Source: a virus (Duplodnaviria > Heunggongvirae > Uroviricota > Caudoviricetes). Taken from it: a stretch of DNA of 36,183 nucleotides. Below the pieces are notes generated by a model that was not told where the DNA came from, searched no databases, and was given only the letters and a program-made list of their open reading frames with translations. Positions 721 to 35,530 of this stretch are shown here, one piece after another. Position numbers and translations under genes: made by a program. Within the stretch, counting starts at the first letter, position 1. Every line of letters begins with the position of its first letter. The stretch lies in the IMG/VR virus record IMGVR_UViG_2737471857_000022. One strand, written 5' to 3'.

Positions 721-1017
721 GATTTGCCCTCGCGTGAAAATATTTTCGATTATTTATAAAAAAGACTTGACAAAATCAAAAGGTACTGTTCCACGGGTGA
801 AATAAAGGGAGTTTTCGGCACCCCGGTTTTTGATGTGCGTGTGAGATTTCAAAACAGGTGCAGTGCAGCCCACCAGCGCGGTCGCTACGCGACTATTAAC
901 ACCAGCCAATCCCTTTCCATGCCTCGATCTTTCCCTTCGTTATAAAGCGTTTTAGGCGCTCTCCTGAATGCGCAGATCAGATAAATAATTTTACGCAAAT
1001 TTAATGGAGGATAACCA

Positions 1018-1578: not shown

Positions 1579-1625
1579 AACGCGTTATAAATAAATGTAT
1601 GAAAGATGTTGATGGTCAACGTCTA

Positions 1626-2217: not shown

Positions 2218-2243
2218 GGGACTCTTCGGAGTCCCTTTTTTTA
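2218..2243 (+). terminator. rho-independent terminator (GGGACTC-TTCG-GAGTCCC plus TTTTTTT)
   Basis: Perfect 7-bp stem, UUCG loop, 8 T. Second terminator about 80 bp after the first. Confidence 0.75.
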
Positions 2244-3182
2244 TTGGCAGTAAGAAAAGTTAGTACCGTACATTTCATCATGAAGCATTGCAGCATTGCG
2301 TTTCTGTTCTTCTTCCTCATCTTCTACATCACTAGAAAAATGAGATTTGCCCTTAAAAGAACGAAGTAATTGCAGTGCAGCCATCGGATCACGCATCACA
2401 TCGATTTTCACTTCTACTTCATCATTTGCGGCCTCATCAGCCGCGTTTTCAACTACTGCTACCGGAGCAACTTCTTTAGCTTTCAGTTCTTCAATCTCAG
2501 CTTTCTGTGCTTCGATAATCTGGTCTTTTTCTTCCAGTGCAGCTTTCAGTTCTGCGATCTGTGCTTCCAGTGCAGCAAAGCGATCTTCAACAACCGGAGA
2601 AACAGCATTCACCTGTGCTTCCAGTTCCAGAAATGCTTCGCAAGATTCAATACGTTCTTTCTCTTCACCTTCATAAGCAACCAGTTCTACAACTTCTTTT
2701 TCGGTAGCGTGGCTGTTAAAGAAAACAGCAAAGTAAGGATTGCCGGATTTAGTGAAGTTCAGTTTAGCTTTTCCGGTAACTTCTTTACGACGACCGAAGG
2801 TGATCTGGCAATCAGCGGTATCCTGAAAATCCATGTTAGGAGCGGAAACGATAGCAGTATCACCAGCAATAACCAGGTGGAACAGTTCAGAAGAGTTCTT
2901 AACGGTAAAAGTAACGATGTGGTCTACTGCAACGTCTTTAGCAGGTTTAACGCGGTCGATTGCTTTACGAATGCCGTTAGGCAGTTTACCGTCAACACCA
3001 AAGCCAGCCGCGATCAGTGCTTCACGATGTGCTTTAAAGCCAGCGAAGGCGGATTTCTGCTGCGCAAAGGAAACATGAGCAACAACTTTCGGCTGAATCT
3101 TCTTGTTTGCTTCGGTGCCAAATTTGATAACTGCTTTAGCGTTGGTTACTTCGTTAGTGAAAAAGTTAGCGGAAAATAACAT
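2241..3182 (-). CDS. hypothetical protein (313 aa) with central coiled coil and acidic C-terminus
   Basis: ORF with AGGAG SD 8 nt upstream; heptad-like EAQIAELKAALEEKDQIIEAQKAEIEELKAKE; no family recognised. Confidence 0.6.
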   Translation of the reverse strand: MLFSANFFTNEVTNAKAVIKFGTEANKKIQPKVVAHVSFAQQKSAFAGFKAHREALIAAGFGVDGKLPNGIRKAIDRVKPAKDVAVDHIVTFTVKNSSELFHLVIAGDTAIVSAPNMDFQDTADCQITFGRRKEVTGKAKLNFTKSGNPYFAVFFNSHATEKEVVELVAYEGEEKERIESCEAFLELEAQVNAVSPVVEDRFAALEAQIAELKAALEEKDQIIEAQKAEIEELKAKEVAPVAVVENAADEAANDEVEVKIDVMRDPMAALQLLRSFKGKSHFSSDVEDEEEEQKRNAAMLHDEMYGTNFSYCQ

Positions 3183-3295
3183 TATAAATACTCCTGTGGA
3201 AAGTTAGTTTTAATTGTTCATTTCAAGCCTCCTTTGCTGCAACAAGGGAGGCTTTTTCTTTTTTTAAAGCCATCATATAATTCTCAGTCAAAGTA

Positions 3296-3478
3296 TCAGT
3301 AAACCTCTGCGGTTATCTTTACTTTAATGTCATACTTCTTTAAGAGTTTATGAAAGGTTGATTTATCGATACCCTCATTTTTAAACCACTCTTCAATTCT
3401 CACACCCGGCGTTAACTCAAAGTAGCGTTTAGCCATTTCTAAGATGATTTCGCGAGTGAACTTAACAGGTCGTGCCAT
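3296..3478 (-). CDS. small HTH DNA-binding protein (60 aa), Hin/resolvase-type HTH-like
   Basis: AGGAGG SD 5 nt upstream; ARPVKFT...GIDKSTFHKLLKKYDIK resembles a GRPxK-type HTH; paralogous to CDS 6886..7113. Confidence 0.55.
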   Translation of the reverse strand: MARPVKFTREIILEMAKRYFELTPGVRIEEWFKNEGIDKSTFHKLLKKYDIKVKITAEVY

Positions 3479-3994
3479 CTCGAATCCTCCTACAATGTGG
3501 ATTAATGATTTCTTAAAAAAGAGCGTTAACCGCTCACTATTATTTATATGGGGATTGTATTTTATTTTTCAACCCCTCACATTTATCTCTTATATATGTA
3601 TTTACAACAGAGATATGTTAAAATGTTATTCAGATGTTATCAGGCGTGTTAAATGTGTTAAACCACAGCACGAATTGCTAAAGCGAAGAACACGATTTAA
3701 CCAAATTGATGTATATTCAATCAATTTAGAAAAAGGCATAGCACTTTTTGCTAAAGCGGTGAGCATTAATTGAGCTATGAATTGTAAAGATTTGTTACAA
3801 GATTTTCTCTCAGATCCAAATCTTCACAGACATATAACAATTTAACAGAAGGATAACAATAGGAAGGAAAATCGGTAAATTTTCACTTTCAATACAAATA
3901 TTATGACATATTTATCTCTAATTTTCAAGTATACCACTGTTCCTGCACAGTGTCAACAAAGGACTTTCAAACCTACACTAGCCCTACACTATGA

Positions 3995-4237
3995 AAATTG
4001 CCCCCGAATTTTTGCCCCTGAACCAAAATCCCCTAGATTTCACATCCCATTTTTGCCCCTGAAACCCACTATTTTTGCCCCTGAAATTCTGGGAAACAGT
4101 GATTTTGCCCCTTATTTTTGCCCCTGAAATGCCAATAATTGCCCCTGAAAATCTAATTTTTGCCCCTGAATTTTGCCCCTGAAAAGGATTTGTGAGAAAA
4201 ACTCTTTATAAAACATTAACTTAGTGAGGGGCAAAAC
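3995..4237. repeat. iteron array: at least 6 perfect and 3 degenerate direct copies of TTTTGCCCCTGAA plus one inverted copy
   Basis: Perfect copies start at 4010, 4051, 4073, 4116, 4158 and 4171. Degenerate copies near 3997, 4103 and 4139. Inverted copy GAGGGGCAAAA at 4225-4235. Confidence 0.85.
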
Positions 4238-4239
4238 AG

Positions 4240-4860
4240 GGAATCGGGCGTGCATAGATATTATATAACACATTCGCTACGCTCATGTGTAAAACCAAAA
4301 ACAACAAATAACCAAAAAGATATTAGGAGGGCGTAGCCCGACTGCGCGAAGCGCTAACCAATTACTTCTAGTAACACTAATTTAAACTAGATGATACTAG
4401 ATGGTCTTAGAAGGAATTAACTAGTTTGCTCGCTCGCTTCGCTCACTCTCAAACGTCTGCGACGCCACTGCGTGGCATCGAGAATCACTTCTGAAAGGAT
4501 TTTCTTGAAAGGGATTTTAAACTAGTTACTAACTGATTCTAGAAAGATAGTAATAATCACTTTGAAGATAATAGTAGTTAACTGGTTACTAGATGATTCT
4601 AGATCACTTTAATGATCATGAAAGGTATTGGTTATCCCTTCGGGATTGCAACCTTCGGTTGCTAAATTGCTTCCGGATTATTATTTCTCCAAAAGAAAGA
4701 TTCTTATATTCTAAAGATACTTCTTCGTTTTGATGATGATTTAATCAAAATCTATGAAGGAGGCGAAGCCGACTGAATACCAATTCCTTTCAAATTAGAC
4801 AAAAATTTCTCGTTATAAATAATAGTGTACTTTGTTTGATTCACTTTCTTTTAGAGGATT
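4240..4860. other. about 600 bp non-coding region with clustered ACTAG(A/T)T motifs and tandem UUCG-loop hairpins
   Basis: No ORF of 60 aa or more with an RBS. CTAG-containing motifs at 4366, 4387, 4396, 4420, 4521, 4537, 4588 and 4597. Hairpins at about 4458-4480, 4633-4645 and 4648-4663. Confidence 0.4.
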
Positions 4861-4866
4861 TCCACT

Positions 4867-5319
4867 ATGATCAATACTAAAACTCCTTTCATTCTTCTGG
4901 GTCTGAACCATGATGATAATCTGGCTATGATGCATGTTTTCGCTAATCGTGGTTATAACATCATTCGTCATTCCGAAGACTCCAATTTCTCAACTGCTTT
5001 CTATGCTCTTAAACGTAATGGTCGCCCTACGGTGATCGTAGACTGCTTTACTGATGAAGGTCGTGAACAATACAACAACATTCCGGCAATTATTGTTCGT
5101 GATGACCTGCCGTTTGATGTTCGTGAATATGACGTTGATTTAGGCTCTTACTATGGGATCGCCGATCTTGACCAGATTATGGCTGATTATGGTAAACAAC
5201 CCGCTCAGGAAGCCCCAGAACACGATGAACAAGACGAAGATGACGACGACTACGCACCAATCTGCTTCTCTTCTCAGAATGGCTTCTACGGTTACGATGA
5301 AGGCTTAGATATGCTGTAA
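4867..5319 (+). CDS. hypothetical protein (150 aa) with acidic C-terminal tail
   Basis: ORF with GAGGA SD; codon usage consistent with neighbours; no family recognised. Confidence 0.6.
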   Translation: MINTKTPFILLGLNHDDNLAMMHVFANRGYNIIRHSEDSNFSTAFYALKRNGRPTVIVDCFTDEGREQYNNIPAIIVRDDLPFDVREYDVDLGSYYGIADLDQIMADYGKQPAQEAPEHDEQDEDDDDYAPICFSSQNGFYGYDEGLDML

Positions 5320-5341
5320 GTTAGGTCAACCCTTTGGCGTC

Positions 5342-5383
5342 TTGTCAAGGGGTATTGACAAAATTTTCTGACTTTTTTATGAT
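5342..5383 (+). promoter_or_regulatory. sigma70-like promoter (TTGACA-17 nt-TATGAT) overlapped by palindrome TTGTCAA-N6-TTGACAA
   Basis: -35 at 5355-5360, -10 at 5378-5383, inverted repeat at 5342-5361; a further TTGACAA at 5392-5398. Confidence 0.45.
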
Positions 5384-5439
5384 TATCGCACTTGACAATT
5401 TTGAACCTATTTGACCTAGATTTGTAAAGAGGATGTAAC

Positions 5440-5772
5440 ATGAAAGAATTTACCATCACTAAATCCCTGTATGACTGGACTGTTAAAATCTCCGGCAAAA
5501 CCGTTTCTGTAAGCCCTAGCCATGTAGAAAATGATTGGGGCGTATCCCGTGAAACTATCTCCCGTAGTATGCATGTTCCGTTTGATCTGATGTCCTTAAC
5601 TGGTATTCATGCAATGCTGGAAGTTCGCGAACAATTCGAAGCTGGTAATCACAATGCGACTCCAGTTAGCAATCACCTTCTTACTAATGAAGAACGTGAA
5701 ATCATCGAAAACTGGCGTTATGAATATGCGATTCCTTATTATGAAGAAGATCAGGTAGAAATCGATTGGTAA
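5440..5772 (+). CDS. hypothetical protein (110 aa)
   Basis: ORF with AGAGGA SD; no family recognised. Confidence 0.6.
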   Translation: MKEFTITKSLYDWTVKISGKTVSVSPSHVENDWGVSRETISRSMHVPFDLMSLTGIHAMLEVREQFEAGNHNATPVSNHLLTNEEREIIENWRYEYAIPYYEEDQVEIDW

Positions 5773-5861
5773 TAAATTTCTATTATAAATAAAATTGTTC
5801 CGGTGGTGATGCCGGAACTAGGAGGACCAAATCATTAAACCGTTTAAGGGGAATTAATACT

Positions 5862-6737
5862 ATGAATACTGTTACTACTATGAATACTGCTAACGTTTCT
5901 TTTGATGCTTCTCTGACTGCCACAAAGAAAGAATGGCAAATCGATAAAACCGCTTCAATGTCTCTGGTTGTTGATAACACCAAACCGCTGACCATGTCTA
6001 CTTTGCAGATCGCGCAAATGATGGATCGCGTAGACCGCCACCGTGATATTAAGCGAACTGTTGACCGTCTCGTTTCTTCCGGTGTAATTGTCCACACGCC
6101 AACGGCGCGCGAACAACTGGAAGATAAATTTGGTCGTTCTCGTGAAATTGAAGTTTATCTTCTTGATGAACGTTCGTCATATATTGTTGTTGCTCAAATT
6201 TCGCCAGAATTTACCGCTTTTATCGTTGATGAATGGAAGCGACTGAAAGAAGAAAATGAAAAACTTCGCTCTACTCCTGTTAACCCGTATGCAGACTTTG
6301 AAGAAACAGACTGGATCGAACTGGCATTAGATGAAAAACGCAAAAATAAAAAACTGATTGAGCTACACATTCGCAAATCCGTAGATAGCCATTCTATGAC
6401 ACGTCTGTTAGGCGCTAAAAAGGGCGCTACGAAGGTTAAAGAAGCACTAACGGCCTTGCGTACTGCTGGCTACATTGAGCGCGTCTACGATGAAAATAAC
6501 AAGCCGTGTGGGTATGTTGCTAATGACTCTTCTCTGTCTTTCTGCCGCATGAATGCTCACTACCAACTTGAGTTTACTGTTGATGTTCTTCCGGTGCTGG
6601 TTGAATTGGGCGTTTTGGAAGAAGAACAGAAAGCAACTCTTAAACTACCGCAGCCAAATAACACTATTCTGATTCAAAATAAAGCGGCTGAACGTCTCCG
6701 CCAGAATGTTGGATCACTGGAAGTCTTCGGACTGTAA
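5862..6737 (+). CDS. Rha-like phage regulatory protein / antirepressor-type protein (291 aa)
   Basis: Segment LTMSTLQIAQMMDRVDRHRDIKRTVDRL resembles the Rha-family N-terminal motif (recalled); AAGGGG SD. Confidence 0.5.
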   Translation: MNTVTTMNTANVSFDASLTATKKEWQIDKTASMSLVVDNTKPLTMSTLQIAQMMDRVDRHRDIKRTVDRLVSSGVIVHTPTAREQLEDKFGRSREIEVYLLDERSSYIVVAQISPEFTAFIVDEWKRLKEENEKLRSTPVNPYADFEETDWIELALDEKRKNKKLIELHIRKSVDSHSMTRLLGAKKGATKVKEALTALRTAGYIERVYDENNKPCGYVANDSSLSFCRMNAHYQLEFTVDVLPVLVELGVLEEEQKATLKLPQPNNTILIQNKAAERLRQNVGSLEVFGL

Positions 6738-6844
6738 TTAATTTTTAGCCTCGCCTCGTGCGGGGCTTTTTCATACCTACATCACGCGACTTTTCGCGCC
6801 ATCTTCCACCAACCCGCCGATGGCGTTTTGGACACCCTACAGAT

Positions 6845-6870
6845 ACAAAAAAGCCACTCCGAAGAGTGGC
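6845..6870 (-). terminator. rho-independent terminator for the minus-strand operon 7754 to 6886
   Basis: GCCACTC-TTCG-GAGTGGC hairpin; A6 on + strand is T6 downstream on the minus strand. Confidence 0.65.
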
Positions 6871-6885
6871 AAAGAGAATCAAAAC

Positions 6886-7113
6886 TCAAAAACCTGTTGC
6901 TTCTACGATCTGACCATCACCGATCTGAACATAGAATTTAATGTCTAACTTCTTCATATTCTTATAGAATTGGGCGATTGAGATCCCATGTTCACTAAGA
7001 ATCTGTTCTTTCGCTTCCTTACCACGATCCGCTGTATAATAAGCGTAGGCAATATCAGCCATCTGTTCAGCGTTAAAACGGGCAGGGCGACCGCGAGTAG
7101 CTTTAGTAGTCAT
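6886..7113 (-). CDS. small HTH DNA-binding protein (about 75 aa from the second ATG; ORF opens with GTG at 7146)
   Basis: RGRPARF...GISIAQFYKNMKKLDIK HTH, paralogous to CDS 3296..3478; GGAG SD suits the ATG at 7113. Confidence 0.5.
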   Translation of the reverse strand: MTTKATRGRPARFNAEQMADIAYAYYTADRGKEAKEQILSEHGISIAQFYKNMKKLDIKFYVQIGDGQIVEATGF

Positions 7114-7148
7114 AGTCATTTTCTCCAAATTAAAGTGAATGTTCACCT

Positions 7149-7754
7149 TTATTTAGAGGACTTACATTTTATCGGAAAAAGTTCTTCATCGTCAATACTC
7201 ATAAAGAACTCTGCCTTAATCCCGTACTTCTTCAACCGTGAATAGTATGTACCCCGACTTATATCAACCTTGCGAAGCACTTCAAAGAACCCTTTAGGAT
7301 CGTTGTAATAGTGGCTATAACGCACGTTAGCGAGTTCAACGAATAGTTCCCTTGTATCACCATAGCCTTTCTTGAAAGCCTCGTTACGATAGCGTGTAAT
7401 TGCGTGATTCAATCTCTTCTGTTTCAACACTTCCCTGATCGGTGTCCACTGCAACCGATAGATAGGACCGTCATCAATGCGATAATAACGCTTGATATCA
7501 AAATCAAACCAATCTCGGACTCTCCGAAACTCTGTATGTGATGTTCTATGCTTCTTAAAGAAGTTGTGAACGTCTGTATAACCATTATCGCGGTAAAACT
7601 CTATTAAAATCTCTTTCGCTTCCTCACGACTAAAGCCAGATGTTGTGTAGTCGGTTTTTAAATGCTTATGCTTAACTGGCAAACGATATTCATGATCGGT
7701 ACAACAAGACAAGGCTAATTCTACTTCATCTCTTTGTTGCTGATTAATTAGCAT
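7149..7754 (-). CDS. hypothetical protein (201 aa) with C-terminal HTH related to the two small HTH proteins
   Basis: AAGGGGG SD 5 nt upstream; C-terminal [16 protein letters not shown] matches the HTH motif of 3296..3478 and 6886..7113. Confidence 0.6.
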
Positions 7755-7841: not shown

Positions 7842-9749
7842 ATGAAACTGATTTCTAATAAGGCCAAATTAAAAAAGATTCTCAGAAATGCAGCCAAATA
7901 TATTACGCCACCGCCTAAACTCCTCCCTTCTGAATGGTGCGAAGCGAATATGGTGCTGGTAGATGGTCCTCAAGCTGGGGATAAAGTTAAATTGCTGTCA
8001 TTCCAGAAAGGCATGATTGATGCTCCTTTCCTTGAGAACAAGAAAAAGTATGTTCTGATGACCAGTGCGCAGATCGGAAAGACTACCATCCTGAACGGTA
8101 TCCTGTTTAACCAGATGGCTAACGATCCATGCAATATGATTATCGGACAATCAACCGCTAAAGAAATGTCTCAATATCTCGCGGGTAAGATCCGACCGTC
8201 CATCGAAGCATGTGATGCATTAAAAGACGTGGTTACAGACAAGAATGATCGCAATGCGGTTAACAACAATAACCAGCTACAGCTAAAAACGAATCACTTC
8301 CTGTACATGGTATCGCTTACCAGTCCATCAACCCTACGTGGTAAGACCGCAAAGGTTGGATTGCTTGACGAAATCGATGCTGCTACAGCCTCAGAAGAAG
8401 GTGATCCGGTGGCGCTGGCTGCTAACCGTTTAACTACCTTTGGCGATGAAGGTCGATTAGTCGTATCCAGTACCCCGACCAGTAAGCTCGGAAGCATTAA
8501 CCAGCAATGGTTATCAAGTGATATGCGTATGTTTTTTGTTCCGTGTCCTCATTGCGGTAGACACCAGGTGATCGAGTGGGAAAACGTACAGTTTGAATGG
8601 CGTAACATCGATGGTAAGAATTTACCCGATCCTGATACCGCTCGTTATATTTGCCCCCATTGTAAGAACGCATGGACAGAAGGGGAACGAATCAGGGCAG
8701 TAGCGCAAGGCGAGTGGAGAGCAACCCGTGAAAGTGAAGTAGCAGGATTCTGGATTAGCCGTCTGTATTCACCTTTCAGCACGATCCGCGCTTGTGTGGT
8801 TGATTTTAGTCATGCGTGGCAATCCTTTGATTTACAATCATTTTATAACACCGTGTTAGGCAAGGTATACGACGATCAGGACACGGCAGTAGAAGCAAAT
8901 GAACTGGAACAACTCAAAACAGATGTTTCTATCGAGAATATCCCTGATGACGTGATTTTCTTGTGTTCAGGAATCGACCAGCAATTGGACCGCGCAGAAT
9001 CTACCATCTTAGGTGTAGCGAAAGATAAGGTTTACATTCTGGATCACCGCAGCTTTTACGATCATAACTGTGAACGATATGAATCACCTGTTTGGGATCG
9101 TCTGGTTAACTTCAAGAAAACCAAATTCTATAACGTTAATGGTGAACGTGTGCCAATGCTCGCCAGCTTCCTTGATACATCGAACGGTCGATTCACTCAA
9201 GCCGGATACCGTATTTGTGGCAAGTGGAAGAACCTACACGCGATCAAAGGTAGTTCATCCGGTAATGCTCCAGTGATTCCGGTTAAACCTACCCGCACAG
9301 GTGGTCATGAATTGCTTATGTTGGGTGTTAACGTTGGGAAATCTGCTGTTCGTGAAATGCTGGTTAGAAACCTGAAAGACAATCCTCACATCGGCTTAGA
9401 AATATCAGAAACCGTTCCTGATGATTATCTCGATCAGCTTTTGAGTGAATCCATCAAGCGTACTACTACTGGCGTGCGTTGGGTGAAAAATCCAGGTAGT
9501 ACCCGAAACGAGGCTCTCGACTGTCTGGTTTATAGCTATGCTGCTTCTCGCTACGTCCTTTCAAAAATGTCATGGGATAAACTCATTGCAATGAAAGACA
9601 GCTTAAACCGTGTTGTCGAAGAACCCGTAAAAGCTCCTGAAACGCAATCTGACGAGCAAATCGAAGAAACTAAGCCAATCACACGACCACAACGTCAAAA
9701 CATCGCCAGACGTCCAAATAGAGGCCGTAGTTGGGTAACATCGTTCTAA
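7842..9749 (+). CDS. terminase large subunit, lambda GpA-like (635 aa)
   Basis: P-loop TSAQIGKT near residue 75, two Cys-x2-Cys pairs ([16 protein letters not shown]); size and position ahead of portal. Confidence 0.85.
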
Positions 9750-14075: not shown

Positions 14076-14366
14076 ATGTTCAAATTATCAGAATCACAAT
14101 TATCAAGAATGTTTAAGAGTGCTCCTGTATTTTCGGTGGAAGGTGGTAAATCAATTCGTGCTTATCATGAAATTACTACTACCGACGAACAAGGGGTAAT
14201 GACAGAAACAGAATTTCTATTTTGTCGTGAGGGAGACTTAAAGCAAGGTGATATTGTCATTGTAGAAAATCAGCGTTTCAAAGTTCAATACGTTAAGCGC
14301 AATGGTGACAATACTTGTGATTGCTTTATCACTTTAGCAGGGGGTACACATGCTCGCTACCGTTAA
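14076..14366 (+). CDS. head-tail joining protein, lambda FII-like (96 aa)
   Basis: C-terminal LKQGDIVIVENQRFKVQYVKRNGDNTCDCFITLAG resembles lambda FII (LRRGDTLTIGEENFWVDRVSPDDGGSCHLWLG, recalled). Confidence 0.55.
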   Translation: MFKLSESQLSRMFKSAPVFSVEGGKSIRAYHEITTTDEQGVMTETEFLFCREGDLKQGDIVIVENQRFKVQYVKRNGDNTCDCFITLAGGTHARYR

Positions 14367-14772
14367 TAATATGCCGAGACTGAAAATCAAACGCGCCTTG
14401 CAAGATATTATCGAACAAGATTTAGGTCTGGCTTTAAACGTAGAACAAACTCAGCAAGGCTTTAGTGATGACGTGGTTTGTTGGATTACTGGCATGAATG
14501 AAACTTATACGCGTGTTCGTGGTGGTAATGCAATGCAAGCTGAATGCGTTATCGAAATGCAGTTATATTCTCAGATTCATGAAACGAAAATTCATGAGGG
14601 TATTTGCCAGATAATCCAGATTCAGCCAGATAACCCACGATTTAAAGATTTGGGCTTCTCTATTTCAGATATCACTCCAGTAGCTTCTAATACCGATTAT
14701 GACGATGATTCTAGTGATGGGGGTATCGTTGGGACACTTAGCCTTAAATTTTCTTATCTAGCGCGTTTTTAA
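14350..14772 (+). CDS. tail terminator, lambda gpU-like (140 aa)
   Basis: GGGGG SD; DVVCWITGMNETYT...QAECVIEMQL and C-terminal DYDDDSSDG resemble gpU (recalled). Confidence 0.5.
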   Translation: MLATVNNMPRLKIKRALQDIIEQDLGLALNVEQTQQGFSDDVVCWITGMNETYTRVRGGNAMQAECVIEMQLYSQIHETKIHEGICQIIQIQPDNPRFKDLGFSISDITPVASNTDYDDDSSDGGIVGTLSLKFSYLARF

Positions 14773-15686: not shown

Positions 15687-18600
15687 ATGCAATCAATCCA
15701 ATTTAAACGAACTAATGTTTCTGGCAAAAAACCAACGCCGGAACAATTACAGGTCGGTGAGGTAGCAATCAACCTTAAAGACCATGTTATTTTTACCAAA
15801 GACCGAGATCATGAAGTAGTTCAAATCTCTGTTTCTCCTGAAACTCACGCGGCACTAGAATCTAAAGTTGATGCTAACAAACAAGAACTAGATAGCACAA
15901 TTGCAGTAAATGACCGCAATATTCACGCTAAAGTAGATGAAATTAAACAAACTACTGATGCAACCATCGCAGCAAATCACGCAGAAATTAACAATAAAGT
16001 TGATGTAATTAAACGCGAAACCGACGCGACAATCGAGGCCAATAAAAATAAAGCTGCTTCCGACCTTGCTGGTGTTAAAGCTGAATTGTCGGATACCATC
16101 AACGCTAATAAAAATGCGGCTGCTGTAGCAACTCAGGAACTGGACACCCGCATCAATAAAAAAGTTGATGATATTAAATCCCGCACCGATGCAACCATCG
16201 CAAGCAATGACAAAGCAATCAATGACAAGGTTGATTTGATTAAGGCAGAAACTGACCGCACTATCGCAGCAAATAAAGTCTATGCGGAAAATCAGTTAAC
16301 TGACACCTACAATAACCTTACTGGTGTGATTGCAGCCAATAAGCAAGAGGCAGCGGATAACGTCGCAGCATTAACCCGTGATGTTGAAGCCAAAAATACA
16401 GCAATTCATAGCAAAATTGACAACAACAAGGTTTACACTGATTCTGAATTGGCACGCTTAGAAAGCCGTATTGATGCAGCCGATGGATCTGCTGATGGCA
16501 AGTACATCAAAAAACACGTAAACACTTATACTGATGGTTATTTGCTGTCTAAGACCGCAAACTATTTTGATGATCCAAGTGCGCGTAATCTTGATTACTT
16601 TGGTGCATTCCGTATGAATGACCTAGCGGGTCATATTGCTTTAGCGTTACATGTTCCGCATCCATCCGGCGTTAATCATGCTCGTGGTTTTGAGTTCACT
16701 TATGGGTCTAATCCACATGCTACGGTAAGAACATACGGCTATGATGAATTGGGTCATTTGGCATATTCTCACCGCATGTATCATGAAGGTGATAAACCTA
16801 CTCCGGCTGAAATTGGCGCATATTCGAAAGCAGAAATTGACCGCCTGTTCCAGAAGACGCTTAATTTTGGTATCGAGGGCGGTTGGTTTAAACTAGGCAC
16901 TTTGACAATGCCACAGCAACACGGTCGCACCGCTAAGATCCGTTTGGTTGGTGGTAACGGTTATAACGTCGGGATGAATGGACAAGCCAATATTATCGAA
17001 TTGGTGATTCGATGCGGCAACAATAGCCCGAAAGGTGTTGTATTCAATGCTTATTATAGCATCTGGTATCACGAACAACATTTTTGTGCAATTCCTACCG
17101 ATGGTGATAATTACGATCTTTACGCTTACTATGGTGCACATACAGGATTTGTTTTAGCAGAATATCAAGTTTCTTCCGGTGGTGTTTCTTTAAACCTGTT
17201 GGATACTCCTGAATACCTGGGCGGTGAAAAACCTGTTGCAGATGAAATTTTTGATGCTCTTAACATTTCATCGTTCAATAACTTTAGCAACCGTGGAACG
17301 TTAAATTTTGGCGGAAACCATCAAGGCCAATATGATATTGAGCATTTGAACGAACAACAAACAAATGCTAAAAAGATGTTGCGTCGCTTCCGTAGTTCTG
17401 CTCCTGCCACTATCTGGCATGAAACTGTTGATGATAACGCATATCGTCTTGCTACTGGATACGAAGATACAAATCAGGAATTATTACTGACAGCAACAAC
17501 CGGATTACATATCAAGAAATTAACATTGGATGGCGGTGTTGGTGGAAATTCTGGTATTGATATTCGTCGAGGACCAAATGAAGCAAGCCATTTTAATTTC
17601 ATGGATTATCGCACTGGTCAAGATGTTCGTAATGGCTGGTTTGGTTTTGGTGACGGTCAGACGAAAGATTTTATTTGGTGGAACGATAACGGTCAAAACT
17701 CAATCAACCTGATCGAAAACGGTGAATTGCATATTACTGGTGGTAAAGGCCAGAAAATTGTAATGAATAGCGAAGTTGCATTGTCTGAAAATGCTCGTTT
17801 GGCTGTCAAAGGCGGTAACTATGGTTTGATTTTACGCAATGATGGTTCTGGTTTCCATATTCTTACTACCAATTTAAAAGATTCTTTTGGTAGTTGGAAT
17901 AATCGCAGACCATTCAGTTATGATTTTGCGGACGGTGGATTATATTTAGGTGGTACTGAAACCGCTCGGTGTTTACATCTGGGGATTGATGGTAGCACTC
18001 GTCTTGAAGACAACCTGTTCTTTAAAGCTGGTTCTCGTCAATCTATGGACTATATGGAACTCGTCCATTGGGGGGCAAGCAATACAGGTCGAAATAACGT
18101 TTTAAGTCTTCGTGACTCAAAAGGATTTTTCGCAGAATTTGAAAGATTGGGTGATAATACCATTAAAAACTCCTTCTTTGGTAAACTTAAAATTAATCGC
18201 GGATCTGATGCAATTATCATGAATGCCGAAAGTGGTGATTCTTCTGTATATTTGTTGGGTACGTGTGCTGATAACAATAATTGGTATATCGGTAAAGGCG
18301 GCGCTGATAATGGATTGGCGTTCTATAGTTATGCTACTAATGCTGCTGTAAACATTACAAACGCGGGGGATATCGCTCTAAGTCCAAAAGGCATCGAAAT
18401 GACTCATGTCAATAACGTTCGATTCTATGTTCATGGTGAACGTTGGACTGCTAGCCAATCTGGAGGTTGGAACGACCAGTGGGGATTAGAAGCGCCGATA
18501 TTTGTCGATCATGGTTATGTTTCACCGGACTGTTATTACCCAATTATTAAAGGAAGAAGTTTAATCACCAATCAAGGGTATACAACTGCCGTCGATTTTG

Positions 18601-19097
18601 GTCTGCGTCGTGTTCCTAATGCATGGGGACAAGCAATTATTCGCGTTGGATCTGCGGAGGCATCGCCAGCGGCTGGTCATCCTCAAGCTGTATTCGAGTT
18701 CCATCATGATGGTACTTTTTACTGTCCTGGTAATGGTAACTTTAACGATGTTTATATTCGTTCCGATCGTCGTCTGAAAATTAATGTTGAAGATTACGAA
18801 GAAAATGCGGTGGATAAGGTAAATAAACTCAAAGTTAAAACCTACGATAAAGTTAAATCTCTTAATGACCGAGAAGTTATAGGTCATGAGATTGGTATTA
18901 TCGCACAGGATTTACAAGAGGTATTACCGGAAGCTGTTAAAACCGCAAAAATTGGTGGTTTTGATAACCCAGAAGAAATTTTAACAATTTCAAACTCCGC
19001 AGTGAACGCGCTTTTAATTAAAGCGGTCCAAGAAATGAGCGAAGAAAATAAACTTCTTCGTGAACGTCTTGCTGCAATTGAAGCTAAATTAGGGTAA
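15687..19097 (+). CDS. side (L-shaped-type) tail fibre with C-terminal intramolecular chaperone domain, T5 pb1-like (1136 aa)
   Basis: Four about 22-aa repeats (xIxxKVDxIKxxTDATIxAN) at aa 77-200. C-terminal 110 aa (YIRS/DRRLK...GIIAQDLQEVLPEAVK...NSAVNALLIKAV) resemble the S74-type chaperone of T5 pb1 and endosialidases (recalled). Confidence 0.85.
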   Translation: MQSIQFKRTNVSGKKPTPEQLQVGEVAINLKDHVIFTKDRDHEVVQISVSPETHAALESKVDANKQELDSTIAVNDRNIHAKVDEIKQTTDATIAANHAEINNKVDVIKRETDATIEANKNKAASDLAGVKAELSDTINANKNAAAVATQELDTRINKKVDDIKSRTDATIASNDKAINDKVDLIKAETDRTIAANKVYAENQLTDTYNNLTGVIAANKQEAADNVAALTRDVEAKNTAIHSKIDNNKVYTDSELARLESRIDAADGSADGKYIKKHVNTYTDGYLLSKTANYFDDPSARNLDYFGAFRMNDLAGHIALALHVPHPSGVNHARGFEFTYGSNPHATVRTYGYDELGHLAYSHRMYHEGDKPTPAEIGAYSKAEIDRLFQKTLNFGIEGGWFKLGTLTMPQQHGRTAKIRLVGGNGYNVGMNGQANIIELVIRCGNNSPKGVVFNAYYSIWYHEQHFCAIPTDGDNYDLYAYYGAHTGFVLAEYQVSSGGVSLNLLDTPEYLGGEKPVADEIFDALNISSFNNFSNRGTLNFGGNHQGQYDIEHLNEQQTNAKKMLRRFRSSAPATIWHETVDDNAYRLATGYEDTNQELLLTATTGLHIKKLTLDGGVGGNSGIDIRRGPNEASHFNFMDYRTGQDVRNGWFGFGDGQTKDFIWWNDNGQNSINLIENGELHITGGKGQKIVMNSEVALSENARLAVKGGNYGLILRNDGSGFHILTTNLKDSFGSWNNRRPFSYDFADGGLYLGGTETARCLHLGIDGSTRLEDNLFFKAGSRQSMDYMELVHWGASNTGRNNVLSLRDSKGFFAEFERLGDNTIKNSFFGKLKINRGSDAIIMNAESGDSSVYLLGTCADNNNWYIGKGGADNGLAFYSYATNAAVNITNAGDIALSPKGIEMTHVNNVRFYVHGERWTASQSGGWNDQWGLEAPIFVDHGYVSPDCYYPIIKGRSLITNQGYTTAVDFGLRRVPNAWGQAIIRVGSAEASPAAGHPQAVFEFHHDGTFYCPGNGNFNDVYIRSDRRLKINVEDYEENAVDKVNKLKVKTYDKVKSLNDREVIGHEIGIIAQDLQEVLPEAVKTAKIGGFDNPEEILTISNSAVNALLIKAVQEMSEENKLLRERLAAIEAKLG

Positions 19098-19103
19098 TTG
19101 GAA

Positions 19104-19123
19104 AGCGGGGAGAAATCTCCGCT
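19104..19123 (+). other. stem-loop after the fibre gene
   Basis: AGCGGGGA-GAAA-TCTCCGCT, one mismatch, no T tract. Confidence 0.3.
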
Positions 19124-19135
19124 AAGGATTCTTAT

Positions 19136-19432
19136 ATGGGATATTGGGTAAGTAGTGAAATTAATACTAAAATCGATGCTTTAAAATGGCATGTATTTGA
19201 TATTCCTAACGGCTATGGTACTGCTCGTGCTGGTGTCGCTGTAATGCGTCATAATGCTGGTGGTGGGTGGTCTGATGCACATATTAACGTAGATGGTTTG
19301 ACCGTTGCTCGTCGTCGTGGTGGGACCAATTGGGGATCTACTATAAATTCGTTTGTTCCTGCTGGCTGCACCGTCTCCTTTGGTTTAGGGGGTGAAGGTG
19401 GTGTTGAATATTTTAAATTCATGGAGTTTTAA
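19136..19432 (+). CDS. small fibre-module protein, paralogue A (98 aa)
   Basis: AAGGA SD; shares W..(F/Y)FDIPNG(W/Y), Gly-rich middle and TVSF...YFKF with the next two ORFs. Confidence 0.65.
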   Translation: MGYWVSSEINTKIDALKWHVFDIPNGYGTARAGVAVMRHNAGGGWSDAHINVDGLTVARRRGGTNWGSTINSFVPAGCTVSFGLGGEGGVEYFKFMEF

Positions 19433-19434
19433 TT

Positions 19435-19740
19435 ATGGCTGGATGGATAAATCAAAGAATGTCAAACGCTATTAGTATTTGGGCTAATGGTGGATATTTT
19501 GATATCCCCAACGGCTGGGTTACTGATTCATGCGGAATTGTTTTTGCTCATATGGAAGCCATTAACGGTGCTGGTGATCTTGATTCTGAATTGGCTGTAA
19601 ATGGATTGATTGAATCAGGTCATCATGCTGGTGATGCTGGGAGTTGGGGCGCTAGTTCTTTAGTTGGCGCTGGTGCTACCGTTAGCTTTACATTGGGTAA
19701 AGGTAGTTTGCATTATTTTAAATTCAGGAGAATGCACTAA
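19435..19740 (+). CDS. small fibre-module protein, paralogue B (101 aa)
   Basis: Start 2 nt after the stop of A; same motif set. Confidence 0.65.
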   Translation: MAGWINQRMSNAISIWANGGYFDIPNGWVTDSCGIVFAHMEAINGAGDLDSELAVNGLIESGHHAGDAGSWGASSLVGAGATVSFTLGKGSLHYFKFRRMH

Positions 19741-20042
19741 TGGCATTTTGGGTAGATGGCGCTTTGGGGAATAGGGCGGGTAAAGCAAATCAAGGATGGT
19801 TTGATATTCCTAACGGTTGGACAGCCGACGCTTTCGGGACTATTTCATTCTGTGCTCATTCTTCCGGTGGTGGCGGTGGTGACTCTGAATTGCTTATTCA
19901 TGGTTTGTGTGTTTCTGGAAGCCATAAGGGTCATGATTGGGGACAGATTCATTCTTGTATTGCACCGCAAGGGGCGGTAATTACCGTTAGCACAAATAGG
20001 GGGATCGCTCATCTTCGTTATAGACGTTTGAGCAACCGCTAA
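19740..20042 (+). CDS. small fibre-module protein, paralogue C (100 aa)
   Basis: TAATG stop/start overlap with B; same motif set, more diverged C-terminus. Confidence 0.6.
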   Translation: MAFWVDGALGNRAGKANQGWFDIPNGWTADAFGTISFCAHSSGGGGGDSELLIHGLCVSGSHKGHDWGQIHSCIAPQGAVITVSTNRGIAHLRYRRLSNR

Positions 20043-20096
20043 ATAAATAGAATTACGGGTATGTGCCCTATTGTTTAAAATAGAAGGAAAAGAATA

Positions 20097-33494: not shown

Positions 33495-35174
33495 TTAAAT
33501 TCCAAATTCCTGTAATGGACCTGATATTTCCTCTTCTGGTTTCCAGTTCTTATCTGTCAGCATGTCTAAACATGGATGCAAAACAAGCCCGTTACTTTCC
33601 AGAATCTGTCTATCATTGATAGTTTTCAAATCAACGAAGATCCGGCCTTTCCTCGGTCCTCTTGAATTTTCTATTACAACTCTCTGGGTCTTGCCATCGA
33701 TGTATTCCAGTACAAACAAGTTTTTGTACTTGTCAATCCTGCTACACCCGATCCGTTTTAGAGCTTGCTTAATCTTAAACCGGACCTTAATGCGATCCTC
33801 GTTGTAAACATCTTCTAAATCAAATTCTGCGAGCTTCTCCCAGCCTTGAGAGTCAACAGAATACATTTCCTCTTCTGCCATCTTGATCTGATTGTAGAGT
33901 GTTTCACGCTCGCTATTGAGGGTAGTAATCTGATCGGCTAGTTCCTTCGTTGCTCCTGTCATAGCAGAAAGGGCAATCAGGTTATCAATCTTGCGTGATA
34001 TCTCATCAACCTGTACTTTCAACGCCGGAACCGGATTAGCCTTATCCTCAGCAATCCAGATTTTATCAGCCAGCAATTGCAATACAGCTTTCTCTAATTG
34101 ATCACCTCGAAAACTCCAGTTTGTATGCACACATGCAATACGACTAGAGCGCATTGCATCGCATGAATAACGATATTGGTTAGGACGTTTGTTAGTTCCT
34201 TTCACCTTAACCATAGCGGAACCGCAATGTTCACATTTCAATAGACCAACACCACTAAGCAAGGGAATAGGTTTAACTTCTTCCTTGTCTCCATAGTTAC
34301 ATGCTCTAACACCAATGCTTTTCTTAAGGTGATAAAACTCAGCGTCATCTAGCACACGAGGATAATAATCCTTTAACTCATACTTAACGCCATCTACAGA
34401 GATTTCCTTGATACCAATCAAAGCGCGGGTATGGAACAACCTTTCAATCATTGCCCGTGACCAGTTTGAATGCCTCTTGTGACTTGCGGCTGGTGGTGGT
34501 GTGTATGTCGCGTTAAGGTGATCCAGTATCTCGGCGGTTGACCGTCCATTCCTGCGTAATTCCACAACTTCCTGAACAATAGGGAAGAAGACCGGATGAG
34601 GAAGCACATAACCAGATGTGGTATCAGTCCACCACATATTCTTTCCAATTTCCTCGATTGCAACAGCCGGATTTTGTGGATTTTCTTGATGAGCTTTAAT
34701 CTTAATCAATGCGCTTGAGTTAGTACGATTGCGCTTAGTCTGACTTTCCTCGTTAGCTCTCGCAAACAACATGACACTCAACAGCAAATCAATAGGATTG
34801 GCATTAACCGATTCCTTGCTATAGACCTTACCATCCATGCCAGTTACGATAGTTATTCCCCTACGGATAATCGAGAGAAATAGCTCTTGTGCTTCAATGA
34901 TGGATTGGCGAGAGATACGGTCTAAGTTTTCCACAACCAGCCAGCTACCAACCGGAACGGATCGACCAATCTCATCCAGAAAGCGAGATAGTGCACCTGT
35001 TCTACTGTTAGCCCCTTTGAATGCAGATACACCAAAATCCTGATAGCTTGTAACTAGCTCAAGATCATATTTTGCGGCTATCTCTGCGGCTGTTCTCTTC
35101 TGGCGTTCATAAGAACTACCATCCGCTTGCTTCATAGACGAGAAGCGAATATACGAATACAGTTTAGTTTTCAT
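33495..35174 (-). CDS. large serine recombinase (phage integrase), about 559 aa from ATG 35174
   Basis: N-terminal resolvase motifs YIRFSSMKQ, SYERQ, LVVENLDRISRQ; zinc ribbon CEHCGSAMV...YSCDAMRSSRIAC; C-terminal coiled coil. Confidence 0.85.
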   Translation of the reverse strand: MKTKLYSYIRFSSMKQADGSSYERQKRTAAEIAAKYDLELVTSYQDFGVSAFKGANSRTGALSRFLDEIGRSVPVGSWLVVENLDRISRQSIIEAQELFLSIIRRGITIVTGMDGKVYSKESVNANPIDLLLSVMLFARANEESQTKRNRTNSSALIKIKAHQENPQNPAVAIEEIGKNMWWTDTTSGYVLPHPVFFPIVQEVVELRRNGRSTAEILDHLNATYTPPPAASHKRHSNWSRAMIERLFHTRALIGIKEISVDGVKYELKDYYPRVLDDAEFYHLKKSIGVRACNYGDKEEVKPIPLLSGVGLLKCEHCGSAMVKVKGTNKRPNQYRYSCDAMRSSRIACVHTNWSFRGDQLEKAVLQLLADKIWIAEDKANPVPALKVQVDEISRKIDNLIALSAMTGATKELADQITTLNSERETLYNQIKMAEEEMYSVDSQGWEKLAEFDLEDVYNEDRIKVRFKIKQALKRIGCSRIDKYKNLFVLEYIDGKTQRVVIENSRGPRKGRIFVDLKTINDRQILESNGLVLHPCLDMLTDKNWKPEEEISGPLQEFGI

Positions 35175-35193
35175 ACCATTTCCAAACAAAAAC

Positions 35194-35485: not shown

Positions 35486-35530
35486 AGTAGAATTTCCTCT
35501 TGTTATTTGAATTACGATATATTTATATCG

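Follow-up and report, generated by a model that had tools for sequence, protein, structure and literature searches.

An iteron array in an Escherichia coli prophage covaries with the N-terminal domain of the orphan protein p320 and is a candidate replication origin

Results

Iterons in the gap between p60 and p150

The 36,183-nucleotide viral sequence IMGVR_UViG_2737471857_000022 (Caudoviricetes), analyzed here over its whole length as "the window", is an Escherichia coli chromosomal prophage integrated in hicB, and a truncated hicB makes up its first ~400 bases. Only one large structured non-coding region is present in the window, a 1388-bp gap between the genes for p60 and p150, and this gap holds an array of short repeats (iterons). 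The array and p320, an orphan protein encoded to its left, are the subject of this study. The genes and features of the locus are as follows.

1018-1578: Nu1-like small terminase subunit, followed by p94
2241-3182, minus strand: p320, 313 amino acids, 0.8 kb left of the array
3296-3478, minus strand: p60, 60 amino acids, with a Hin/HTH_23-like helix-turn-helix; first gene of a leftward p60-p320 unit
3996-4183, plus strand: type A iteron array of nine direct copies, which give the logo a(T/A)TTTTGCCCCTGAAa
4184-4223: AT-rich spacer that separates the inverted copy from the direct array, with a -10-like TATAAA (4207-4212) and aaaaactctttataaaacattaactt, the latter also found in type D relatives
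4224-4236, minus strand: inverted iteron, TTTTGCCCCTCAC, 41 bp right of the last direct copy
4867-5319, plus strand: p150, followed by p110 and a Rha/Ant-like protein (both plus) and then by p86 and p201 (both minus)
7842-9749: gpA-type large terminase subunit, followed by the structural genes

An earlier interpretation made from the letters of the window, here called the sequence-only reading, described six perfect and three degenerate direct copies of a 13-bp motif and one inverted copy in intergenic DNA, and this description was confirmed by a motif scan and by shuffling. Six exact copies of the 13-mer TTTTGCCCCTGAA were found, all on the plus strand, starting at 4010, 4051, 4073, 4116, 4158, and 4171; the expected count is 0.01, and none of 100 dinucleotide-preserving shuffles reached six exact copies. 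Degenerate direct copies start at 3996 (three mismatches), 4103 (two), and 4137 (two), and a scan of the 36-kb window at up to two mismatches gave no site outside the array. The inverted copy has two mismatches and an exact 10-nt core, TTTTGCCCCT. It is present at the same offset in 15 of the 21 loci with an array of this type, across which copy number (6-9) and spacing are conserved, and an inverted copy likewise lies downstream of the array in a relative (L035) with a p320 that is ~46-50% identical.

Start-to-start spacings of the nine direct copies are 14, 41, 22, 30, 13, 21, 21, and 13 bp, which places seven copies roughly on one helical face and gives three doublets of 13-14 bp. The direct copies are phased at 10.5-11 bp to a weak or moderate degree (R 0.55-0.62, p 0.03-0.06); five other arrays show a comparable tendency, and phasing of ~10.5-11 bp is seen across all array types. 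Iteron-type theta origins (Rep_3-class plasmids and phage-plasmids) are characterized by at least three helically phased direct repeats in non-coding DNA; here nine copies are present. A coding repeat was considered and rejected, since the spacings do not keep to multiples of three, the open reading frames (ORFs) overlapping the array are not conserved, and of the 33 genomes with this region 31 have no RefSeq annotation in the array DNA. The iteron motif moreover occurs in all three reading frames, so that the array cannot encode a repeated peptide.

Array type follows the N-terminal domain of p320

Relatives of the prophage carry four unrelated iteron types at the same position, with the layout kept. 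Type A is that of the window; the other three are listed here.

Type B array: motif AAACCTACACT, 6-9 copies
Type C array: motif (A/G)TCCCCG, 12-15 copies
Type D array: motif AATCCCCAAGATTCCA, 5 copies

In the relatives' arrays every copy is direct and on one strand, and spacings are mostly multiples of ~11 bp. Protein identity was compared with array type across 14 annotated loci. p320 is 95% identical within a type (minimum 85%) and 24% identical between types (maximum 27%), and of the neighbours compared it is the only protein that tracks array type; for the two terminase subunits, p60, p150, Rha, and p201, identity is as high as 99-100% between types and as low as 44-75% within them. When loci from IMG/VR and Logan were added, the type of the p320 N-terminal domain (N-domain) equalled the type of the array in 32 of 32 loci. 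The array is thus a real element, conserved in position and architecture, that is type-specific and covaries with the N-domain of p320. From this covariation we infer that p320 is the protein that recognizes the array, and its binding there is very probable on comparative grounds.

Two further observations bear on this assignment. Between p320 and the array lie p60, which occurs as two alleles that are 57% identical, and a left-hand non-coding segment that also occurs in two forms. Both assort independently of the p320/array type, type A being found in two combinations and type B in three, at least five in all; recombination between p320 and the array is therefore free, and their match is maintained rather than a matter of mere linkage. 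The second observation is a natural chimera, P0124, in which a type A N-domain (46% identity, amino acids 1-247) is joined to a C-terminal region of type D (48%). The type A core TTTTGCCCCT is retained in the P0124 array, in the form TTTTTGCCCCT, as seven direct copies and one inverted copy downstream, which maps specificity to the N-terminal domain of p320. The proposal of a protein-binding platform in the sequence-only reading is thereby strongly supported on comparative grounds, and its assignment of the binder to an unassigned early protein looks right, the array covarying perfectly with the adjacent orphan protein.

The same comparison bears on a terminase recognition array, also suggested at first, in which the repeats would be cosB- or pac-like R sites for the Nu1-like and gpA-like subunits. 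The phage does have a lambda-type terminase pair, and the small terminase subunit of lambda binds repeated R sites. The small subunit, however, is 99% identical across type A and type C phages, whose arrays are unrelated, and only 76-79% identical in some phages with the same array type, its overall values going up to 100% between types and down to 75% within one; the large subunit does not covary with the array either. From the array to the terminase genes the distances are 2.4 kb (small subunit) and 3.6 kb (large subunit); what changes with the N-terminal type of the small subunit is the stretch immediately before its gene. Since neither subunit covaries with the array, we reject this role, which we regard as extremely improbable.

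In type C relatives a second p320-like paralogue was observed together with a second array, six tandem 8-mers NANACCNA right of the TCCCCG array (L003, 5883-5930). These 8-mers may be the site of the paralogue.

Domain organization and relatives of p320

p320 consists of an orphan N-domain (approximately amino acids 1-175), a leucine-zipper-like coiled coil (approximately 181-236), and an acidic C-terminal region. Searches with Pfam, PHROGs, NCBIfam, PADLOC, and PDB sequence profiles matched only the leucine-zipper/coiled-coil segment and were treated as noise. A search of 5.8 billion proteins returned only near-identical E. coli hypothetical proteins, and HMMER over 1.84 billion representatives gave 12 matches, including two full-length relatives and two spurious repeat matches, one of which (P0130) was checked by pairwise alignment. 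No homologue was found in the INPHARED phages by tblastn with p320 of types A and B. The N-domains of types A-D could not be aligned with each other by BLASTP. AlphaFold2 modelling gave a mean predicted local distance difference test score (pLDDT) of 46 for whole p320 and 55.6 for the N-domain (predicted template modelling score 0.59, alignment of five sequences); at this low pLDDT the N-domain is predicted to be beta-rich with two helices.

No match to Rha, ORF6N, KilA-N, Bro-N, or ANT domains was obtained at E values up to 1 in the 13 p320-family members scanned. An ORF6N-domain protein, P0131, nevertheless shares the p320 coiled coil (72% identity over 46 amino acids). In a prophage of Atlantibacter, the p320 slot, following a p60-like protein that matches HTH_23/HTH_28, holds a protein with Rha, coiled-coil, and KilAC/ANT parts. 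Together, the shared coiled coil and the protein in the Atlantibacter slot place p320 among the modular phage DNA-binding proteins.

The array as a putative replication origin

Our best single guess, offered tentatively, is that the array is the replication origin of the phage and that p320 is its initiator. p320 would be a host-replisome-dependent initiator that is produced, once the prophage is induced, by expression of the leftward p60-p320 unit. Its N-terminal domain would recognize each 13-bp iteron, and the leucine-zipper-like coiled coil would pair or oligomerize the bound molecules. p320 would coat the array and distort AT-rich flanking DNA, and the interchangeable C-terminal region would recruit replication factors of the host. 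The inverted copy, 41 bp downstream, could have a part in autoregulation or in closure of the array, as inverted half-iterons have in iteron plasmids. All steps after binding are inferred.

An origin is consistent with an array that is present at a single locus, in the one large structured non-coding region of the window, and with its phased direct repeats and additional inverted copy. The sequence-only reading had noted no recognizable initiator nearby, and among the early-region genes scanned in the window we likewise detected no known initiator, helicase loader, primase, or polymerase, which leaves p320 as the only candidate there. The annotation of a complete related prophage, KSC64, also shows no initiator, loader, primase, or polymerase, its only helicase belonging to an accessory DEAD/DEAH cassette. 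AT-rich 40-mers (82-88% AT) abut the array in most relatives, though not in all and on different sides. Identical p320 proteins and arrays in co-resident prophages, described below, would be tolerable for an origin.

Several observations weigh against an origin. Conserved DnaA boxes, integration host factor (IHF) sites, and GATC clusters were sought around the arrays and none was found, and the AT-richest segment has no fixed place relative to the array. p320 shows no recognizable initiator fold, and its gene points away from the array, unlike most rep-iteron pairs. In addition, the Rha/KilAC protein in the Atlantibacter p320 slot and the ORF6N protein that shares the coiled coil belong to classes that are usually regulators or antirepressors. 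Of the interpretation offered from the sequence, the protein-binding platform and the unassigned early binder have stood, the terminase role is rejected, a partition site (considered below) is unlikely, and the origin is kept as the best guess.

Elements flanking the array and possible control of early transcription

The following additional elements were identified on either side of the array.

3535-3548, minus strand: promoter-like element TATAAATAATAGTG, just upstream of p60
3928-3956, minus strand: best sigma-70-like promoter of the region, TTGACA-17-TATACT (11/12 matches), leftward, with the -35 hexamer 15-40 bp from the array
3969-3990, plus strand: two type B motif copies (AAACCTACACT and CCCTACACT) that abut the left edge of the type A array
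4326-4354, plus strand: GGAGG and two GC-rich mini-hairpins (GGGC-GTA-GCCC and GCGC-GAA-GCGC) joined by GACTG

These elements, together with the relatives of p320, bear on a second explanation, which we consider possible though doubtful, namely that the array controls early transcription. p320 would here be a modular regulator of the Rha/ORF6N/KilA-N type that activates or roadblocks two divergent early units, the leftward p60-p320 unit and a long rightward leader into p150-p110-Rha. In accordance with this, the positional counterpart in Atlantibacter is a Rha, coiled-coil, and KilAC protein, and P0131 joins an ORF6N domain to a p320-type coiled coil. The strongest sigma-70 promoter of the region runs leftward from the left edge of the array, and in types A and D the last iteron has a -10-like hexamer 23-24 bp to its right and would accordingly be positioned near -42. 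LexA-box-like sites are present in the same control region of relatives. The geometry is not conserved, however. Where relatives have the other left-hand segment, a promoter of the type at 3928-3956 is ~205 bp away from the array, so that the distance from array to left-hand promoter ranges from 15 to ~205 bp, and types A', B, and C have the right-hand -10-like element at another place or lack it; in the window, TATAAA at 4207-4212 was not called as a promoter by a simple sigma-70 scan. Nine to fifteen sites in one orientation are more than an activator typically uses, no second site exists elsewhere in the 36-kb window, and this explanation leaves the phage without a candidate origin or initiator. 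Control of early transcription and function as an origin are not mutually exclusive.

The LexA-box-like sites (CTG-N10-CAG, for example TGCTGTATTAATTAACAGTG) were found in relatives with the alternative left-hand segment, where two to three lie between the leftward promoters and p60 (L002, L003, L005, L007, L012, and L013; in L003 at 5112-5131, 5197-5216, and 5215-5234). The window itself has no LexA-box-like site, and two AGCAC-N5-TGCT palindromes are found in place of them. The position of the boxes in these relatives suggests that the p60-p320 unit is off in lysogens.

This placement counts against a third explanation, in which the array would be a multi-site operator of an immunity region, p320 the lysogenic repressor, and the four types heteroimmune classes. 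Several sharply diverged specificity types within one phage family, in which binder and sites covary at every locus, a p320 gene that is divergent and adjoins its putative sites, and the nearby LexA-box-like sites in relatives would all fit such a region, and the domain plan of p320 (DNA-binding domain, coiled coil, tail) resembles that of the Mu repressor. Four complete genomes, however, hold two type A array regions each, so that all four double lysogens combine arrays of the same type instead of different types. Two prophages, in ycdX and hicB, were confirmed in strain BS74R-D (L017 and L018); their p320 and p60 are 100% identical and their non-coding regions 97% identical, and they differ instead in Rha (55%) and in a small helix-turn-helix protein, p75 (56%). 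The identity of p320 and arrays in co-resident prophages speaks against an immunity operator, a role that we consider unlikely. The arguments against it are moderate and not decisive, since gene conversion between the residents could homogenize the module. p86/p75 and Rha, the most divergent proteins between the co-resident prophages, are candidate immunity determinants.

The pair of type B motifs left of the array is also present in L035 and is absent from L005 and L006; it is probably a leftover of array exchange. The 14-mer TATAAATAATAGTG upstream of p60 occurs in identical form before p150, at 4814-4827 (plus strand).

A number of smaller elements were observed in the gap right of the array, where an Rfam search of the array region found no RNA family. 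The GGAGG-hairpin-GACTG motif has a second copy at 4759-4775 (plus strand) and a related site at 4428-4448. Its mini-hairpins at 4326-4354 and 4759-4775 are of the GCGNAGC type, and their stems are kept in relatives by compensatory changes (GGGCGTAGCCC, GGCCGTAGGCC, and GGGCTTTAGCCC, of which GGCCGTAGGCC was found in L035). GCGNAGC is not enriched in the window as a whole, yet five of its 14 sites fall within 4276-4769. Side by side at 4634-4662 (plus strand) are ATCCC-TTCG-GGAT and GCAACC-TTCG-GTTGC, two hairpins capped by C(UUCG)G tetraloops, which suggest that plus-strand transcription takes place well before p150 is reached. Another family of repeats, ACTAG(T/A)T(A/G)(C/A)T...GATTCTAGA, is found at 4386-4412, 4520-4543, and 4580-4603. 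It occurs in relatives of all four iteron types and is thus not tied to p320; it is probably the site for another, conserved factor.

Comparison with known systems

Judged by analogy, the p320/array pair would work most like lambda O with ori-lambda and like the Rep/iteron pairs of iteron plasmids, which it resembles in specificity set by an N-domain, an exchangeable effector part, an extra inverted copy, and putative zipper-mediated pairing. It does not belong to the lambda-ori or Rep_3 classes, because it lacks Rep_3 or O domains, DnaA boxes, and iterons inside the gene. In lambda O, the N-terminal domain sets iteron specificity, the C-terminal part is exchangeable, and several specificity types exist in the family. 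Ori-lambda has four 19-bp dyad-symmetric iterons inside the O gene, followed by an AT-rich stretch and a further symmetric element. Putative N-domain specificity, an exchangeable C-terminal part, several specificity types in one family, and an AT-rich stretch with an inverted element after the iterons are also found for p320 and its array. Here, however, 6-15 asymmetric motifs of 6-16 bp lie outside the gene, 0.8 kb from p320, whose gene points away from them, and neither an O-type winged-helix domain nor a P-like helicase loader was found.

Iteron plasmids (pSC101, pPS10, R6K, F, and P1 RepA; Rep_3) have direct repeats phased at ~21-22 bp and an extra inverted partial copy, and their single plasmid-encoded Rep protein dimerizes by a leucine zipper and uses the host replisome. 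The array shares direct repeats with ~21-22 bp phasing and the additional inverted copy, and p320 has a leucine-zipper-like segment. In contrast to these systems, p320 has no Rep_3 or WH1-WH2 signature, no DnaA boxes were found, the motif, at 13 bp, is shorter than the 17-22 bp of plasmid iterons, there is no overlap between the inverted copy and the promoter of p320, and the plasmid search described below gave no match. The P4 alpha protein with ori/crr and the Rep-ori pairs of SaPI/PICI elements likewise use short direct and inverted motifs specific to their own initiator, with many non-cross-reacting specificities among related elements. The array is similar in its short, direct and inverted, type-specific motifs, whereas those initiators carry primase and/or helicase domains, of which profile searches found none in p320.

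Proteins of the Rha/ORF6N/KilA-N/Bro-N/KilAC class have the modular plan seen in p320, with an interchangeable N-terminal domain, a coiled coil, and a variable C-terminal part, but Pfam gave no match to any of these families for the four N-domains from E. coli. We know of no member of the class with a described cognate array of 6-15 iterons. For the Mu repressor with O1-O3 and for RstR of CTX-phi with ig-2, many sites lie between divergent units and heteroimmune types covary with the sites, LexA being involved in CTX-phi. The array is comparable in that its sites extend over ~200 bp between divergent units and that p320 joins a putative DNA-binding N-terminal domain to a coiled coil; it differs in the identity of p320 and arrays in co-resident prophages and in that its sites do not show conserved overlap of promoter-like elements.

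The array and its partner are thus an iteron and binder specificity module of a known kind, with a binder family that is undescribed. In a prophage family with no recognizable replication or immunity genes, the pair is a first handle on control or replication. It also offers a testable specificity code, in which four or more orphan N-domains pair with one DNA motif apiece and which includes a natural domain-swap chimera. As an initiator, p320 would represent a new initiator family without winged-helix, AAA+, primase, or helicase signatures; as a regulator, it would provide a defined DNA target architecture for the poorly understood Rha/ORF6N/KilAC-like class. On either account the module could be used as a set of orthogonal DNA-binding parts.

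Possible links to T4-type phages

Over 16550-20058, the tail-fibre gene (15687-19097) and the three small genes that follow share 80-93% nucleotide identity with the region of the Krischvirus long tail fibre distal subunit, which indicates recent exchange between the temperate prophage and virulent myoviruses (RB49-like, T4-type). A non-coding element of ~50-80 bp at 4676-4755, upstream of p150, is 76-81% identical to an unannotated Krischvirus intergenic element that is present in one to three copies per genome. A relationship of this element to the PeSL promoter/stem-loop cassettes known from RB49/phi1 (PMC2839356) is possible. In addition, TATAAATA, the T4 late-promoter consensus, occurs seven times in the window against 2.7 expected, and the following sites are in the right orientation and at most ~90 nt upstream of early or accessory genes, namely the p60-p320 unit, p150, Rha, and three other accessory genes.

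751-758, minus strand
1586-1593, plus strand
3541-3548, minus strand
4814-4821, plus strand
5784-5791, plus strand
35520-35527, minus strand

It is conceivable, though we think it very unlikely, that p320 and the array form a switch or replicon that is wired to T4-type (Krischvirus) phages, beyond the prophage's own induction. The TATAAATA sites, the ~50-bp Krischvirus element, the cUUCGg hairpins, and the Krischvirus tail-fibre module are in line with such a link, as are the T4 endonuclease VII-like and DEAD/DEAH helicase genes of relatives. If it were true, an infecting T4-like phage could switch on the module, a temperate phage thereby exploiting or countering a virulent one, and the binder would represent a novel class of iteron-binding initiators or regulators whose specificity domains are plug-in units.

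Organization and distribution of the prophage family

Related regions were found in 58 of 5,426 complete E. coli genomes, and all 63 places are chromosomal. Integration sites of the family (L001-L013, L017, and L018) are hicB, ycdX, or a cytosine permease gene; the complete relative KSC64 spans ~38 kb between the two halves of ycdX. The window carries the gene for a large serine recombinase/integrase.

33495-35189: large serine recombinase/integrase

No match was obtained when a plasmid collection was searched by DNA with 3000-7000, which covers the start of p320 and the array. These results bear on the proposal of a centromere-like partition site (parC/parS type), which p320 would bind. Short direct-repeat arrays upstream of a promoter are known from R1 parC and from the heptad arrays of the omega protein, and the array resembles them. 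No NTPase of the ParA, ParM, or TubZ type was found among the genes scanned, however, and with a serine integrase, 63 of 63 chromosomal places, and no plasmid match, the element is an integrated one, for which we judge a partition site to be highly improbable.

Outside E. coli few relatives were found. IMG/VR contained close E. coli relatives only, and a metagenome-derived contig examined for cos ends proved to be an integrated prophage. In the phage collection the closest large terminase subunit is 43% identical. With the large terminase subunit as query, an exact-pattern scan of GTDB genomes gave no hit; an alignment-based scan gave one usable relative, the Atlantibacter prophage, at 50% identity. 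Literature searches on the motif and on the integration site returned nothing relevant.

The small and large terminase genes are 6.2 kb apart with the entire early/regulatory module between them, which is unusual for a lambda-type terminase. In the Atlantibacter relative, a T4 endonuclease VII-like gene directly precedes the large terminase gene (L036, 9351-9806). p60, p86 (6886-7146), and both halves of p201 (7149-7754) share the Hin/HTH_23-like motif GRP..F ... F(Y/H)K(L)(L/M)KKY(D/G)IK, so that the phage encodes a small paralogous family of helix-turn-helix proteins. The right arm has alternative cassettes: where the window has a 197-amino-acid nuclease-like ORF and a 134-amino-acid ORF, KSC64 has the DEAD/DEAH helicase and a 185-amino-acid gene (L014, 6712-8202). 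ARAGORN called a 91-nt tRNA-Glu at 14537-14627 (minus strand) inside an ORF at 14350-14772 (plus strand), which is probably a false positive. In the left arm of the prophage of E. coli PE15 (L006, 1-3778), ISApl1-mcr-1-pap2-ISApl1 adjoins p320 and replaces the small-terminase side, so that the prophage of one strain of this family carries a chromosomal mcr-1.

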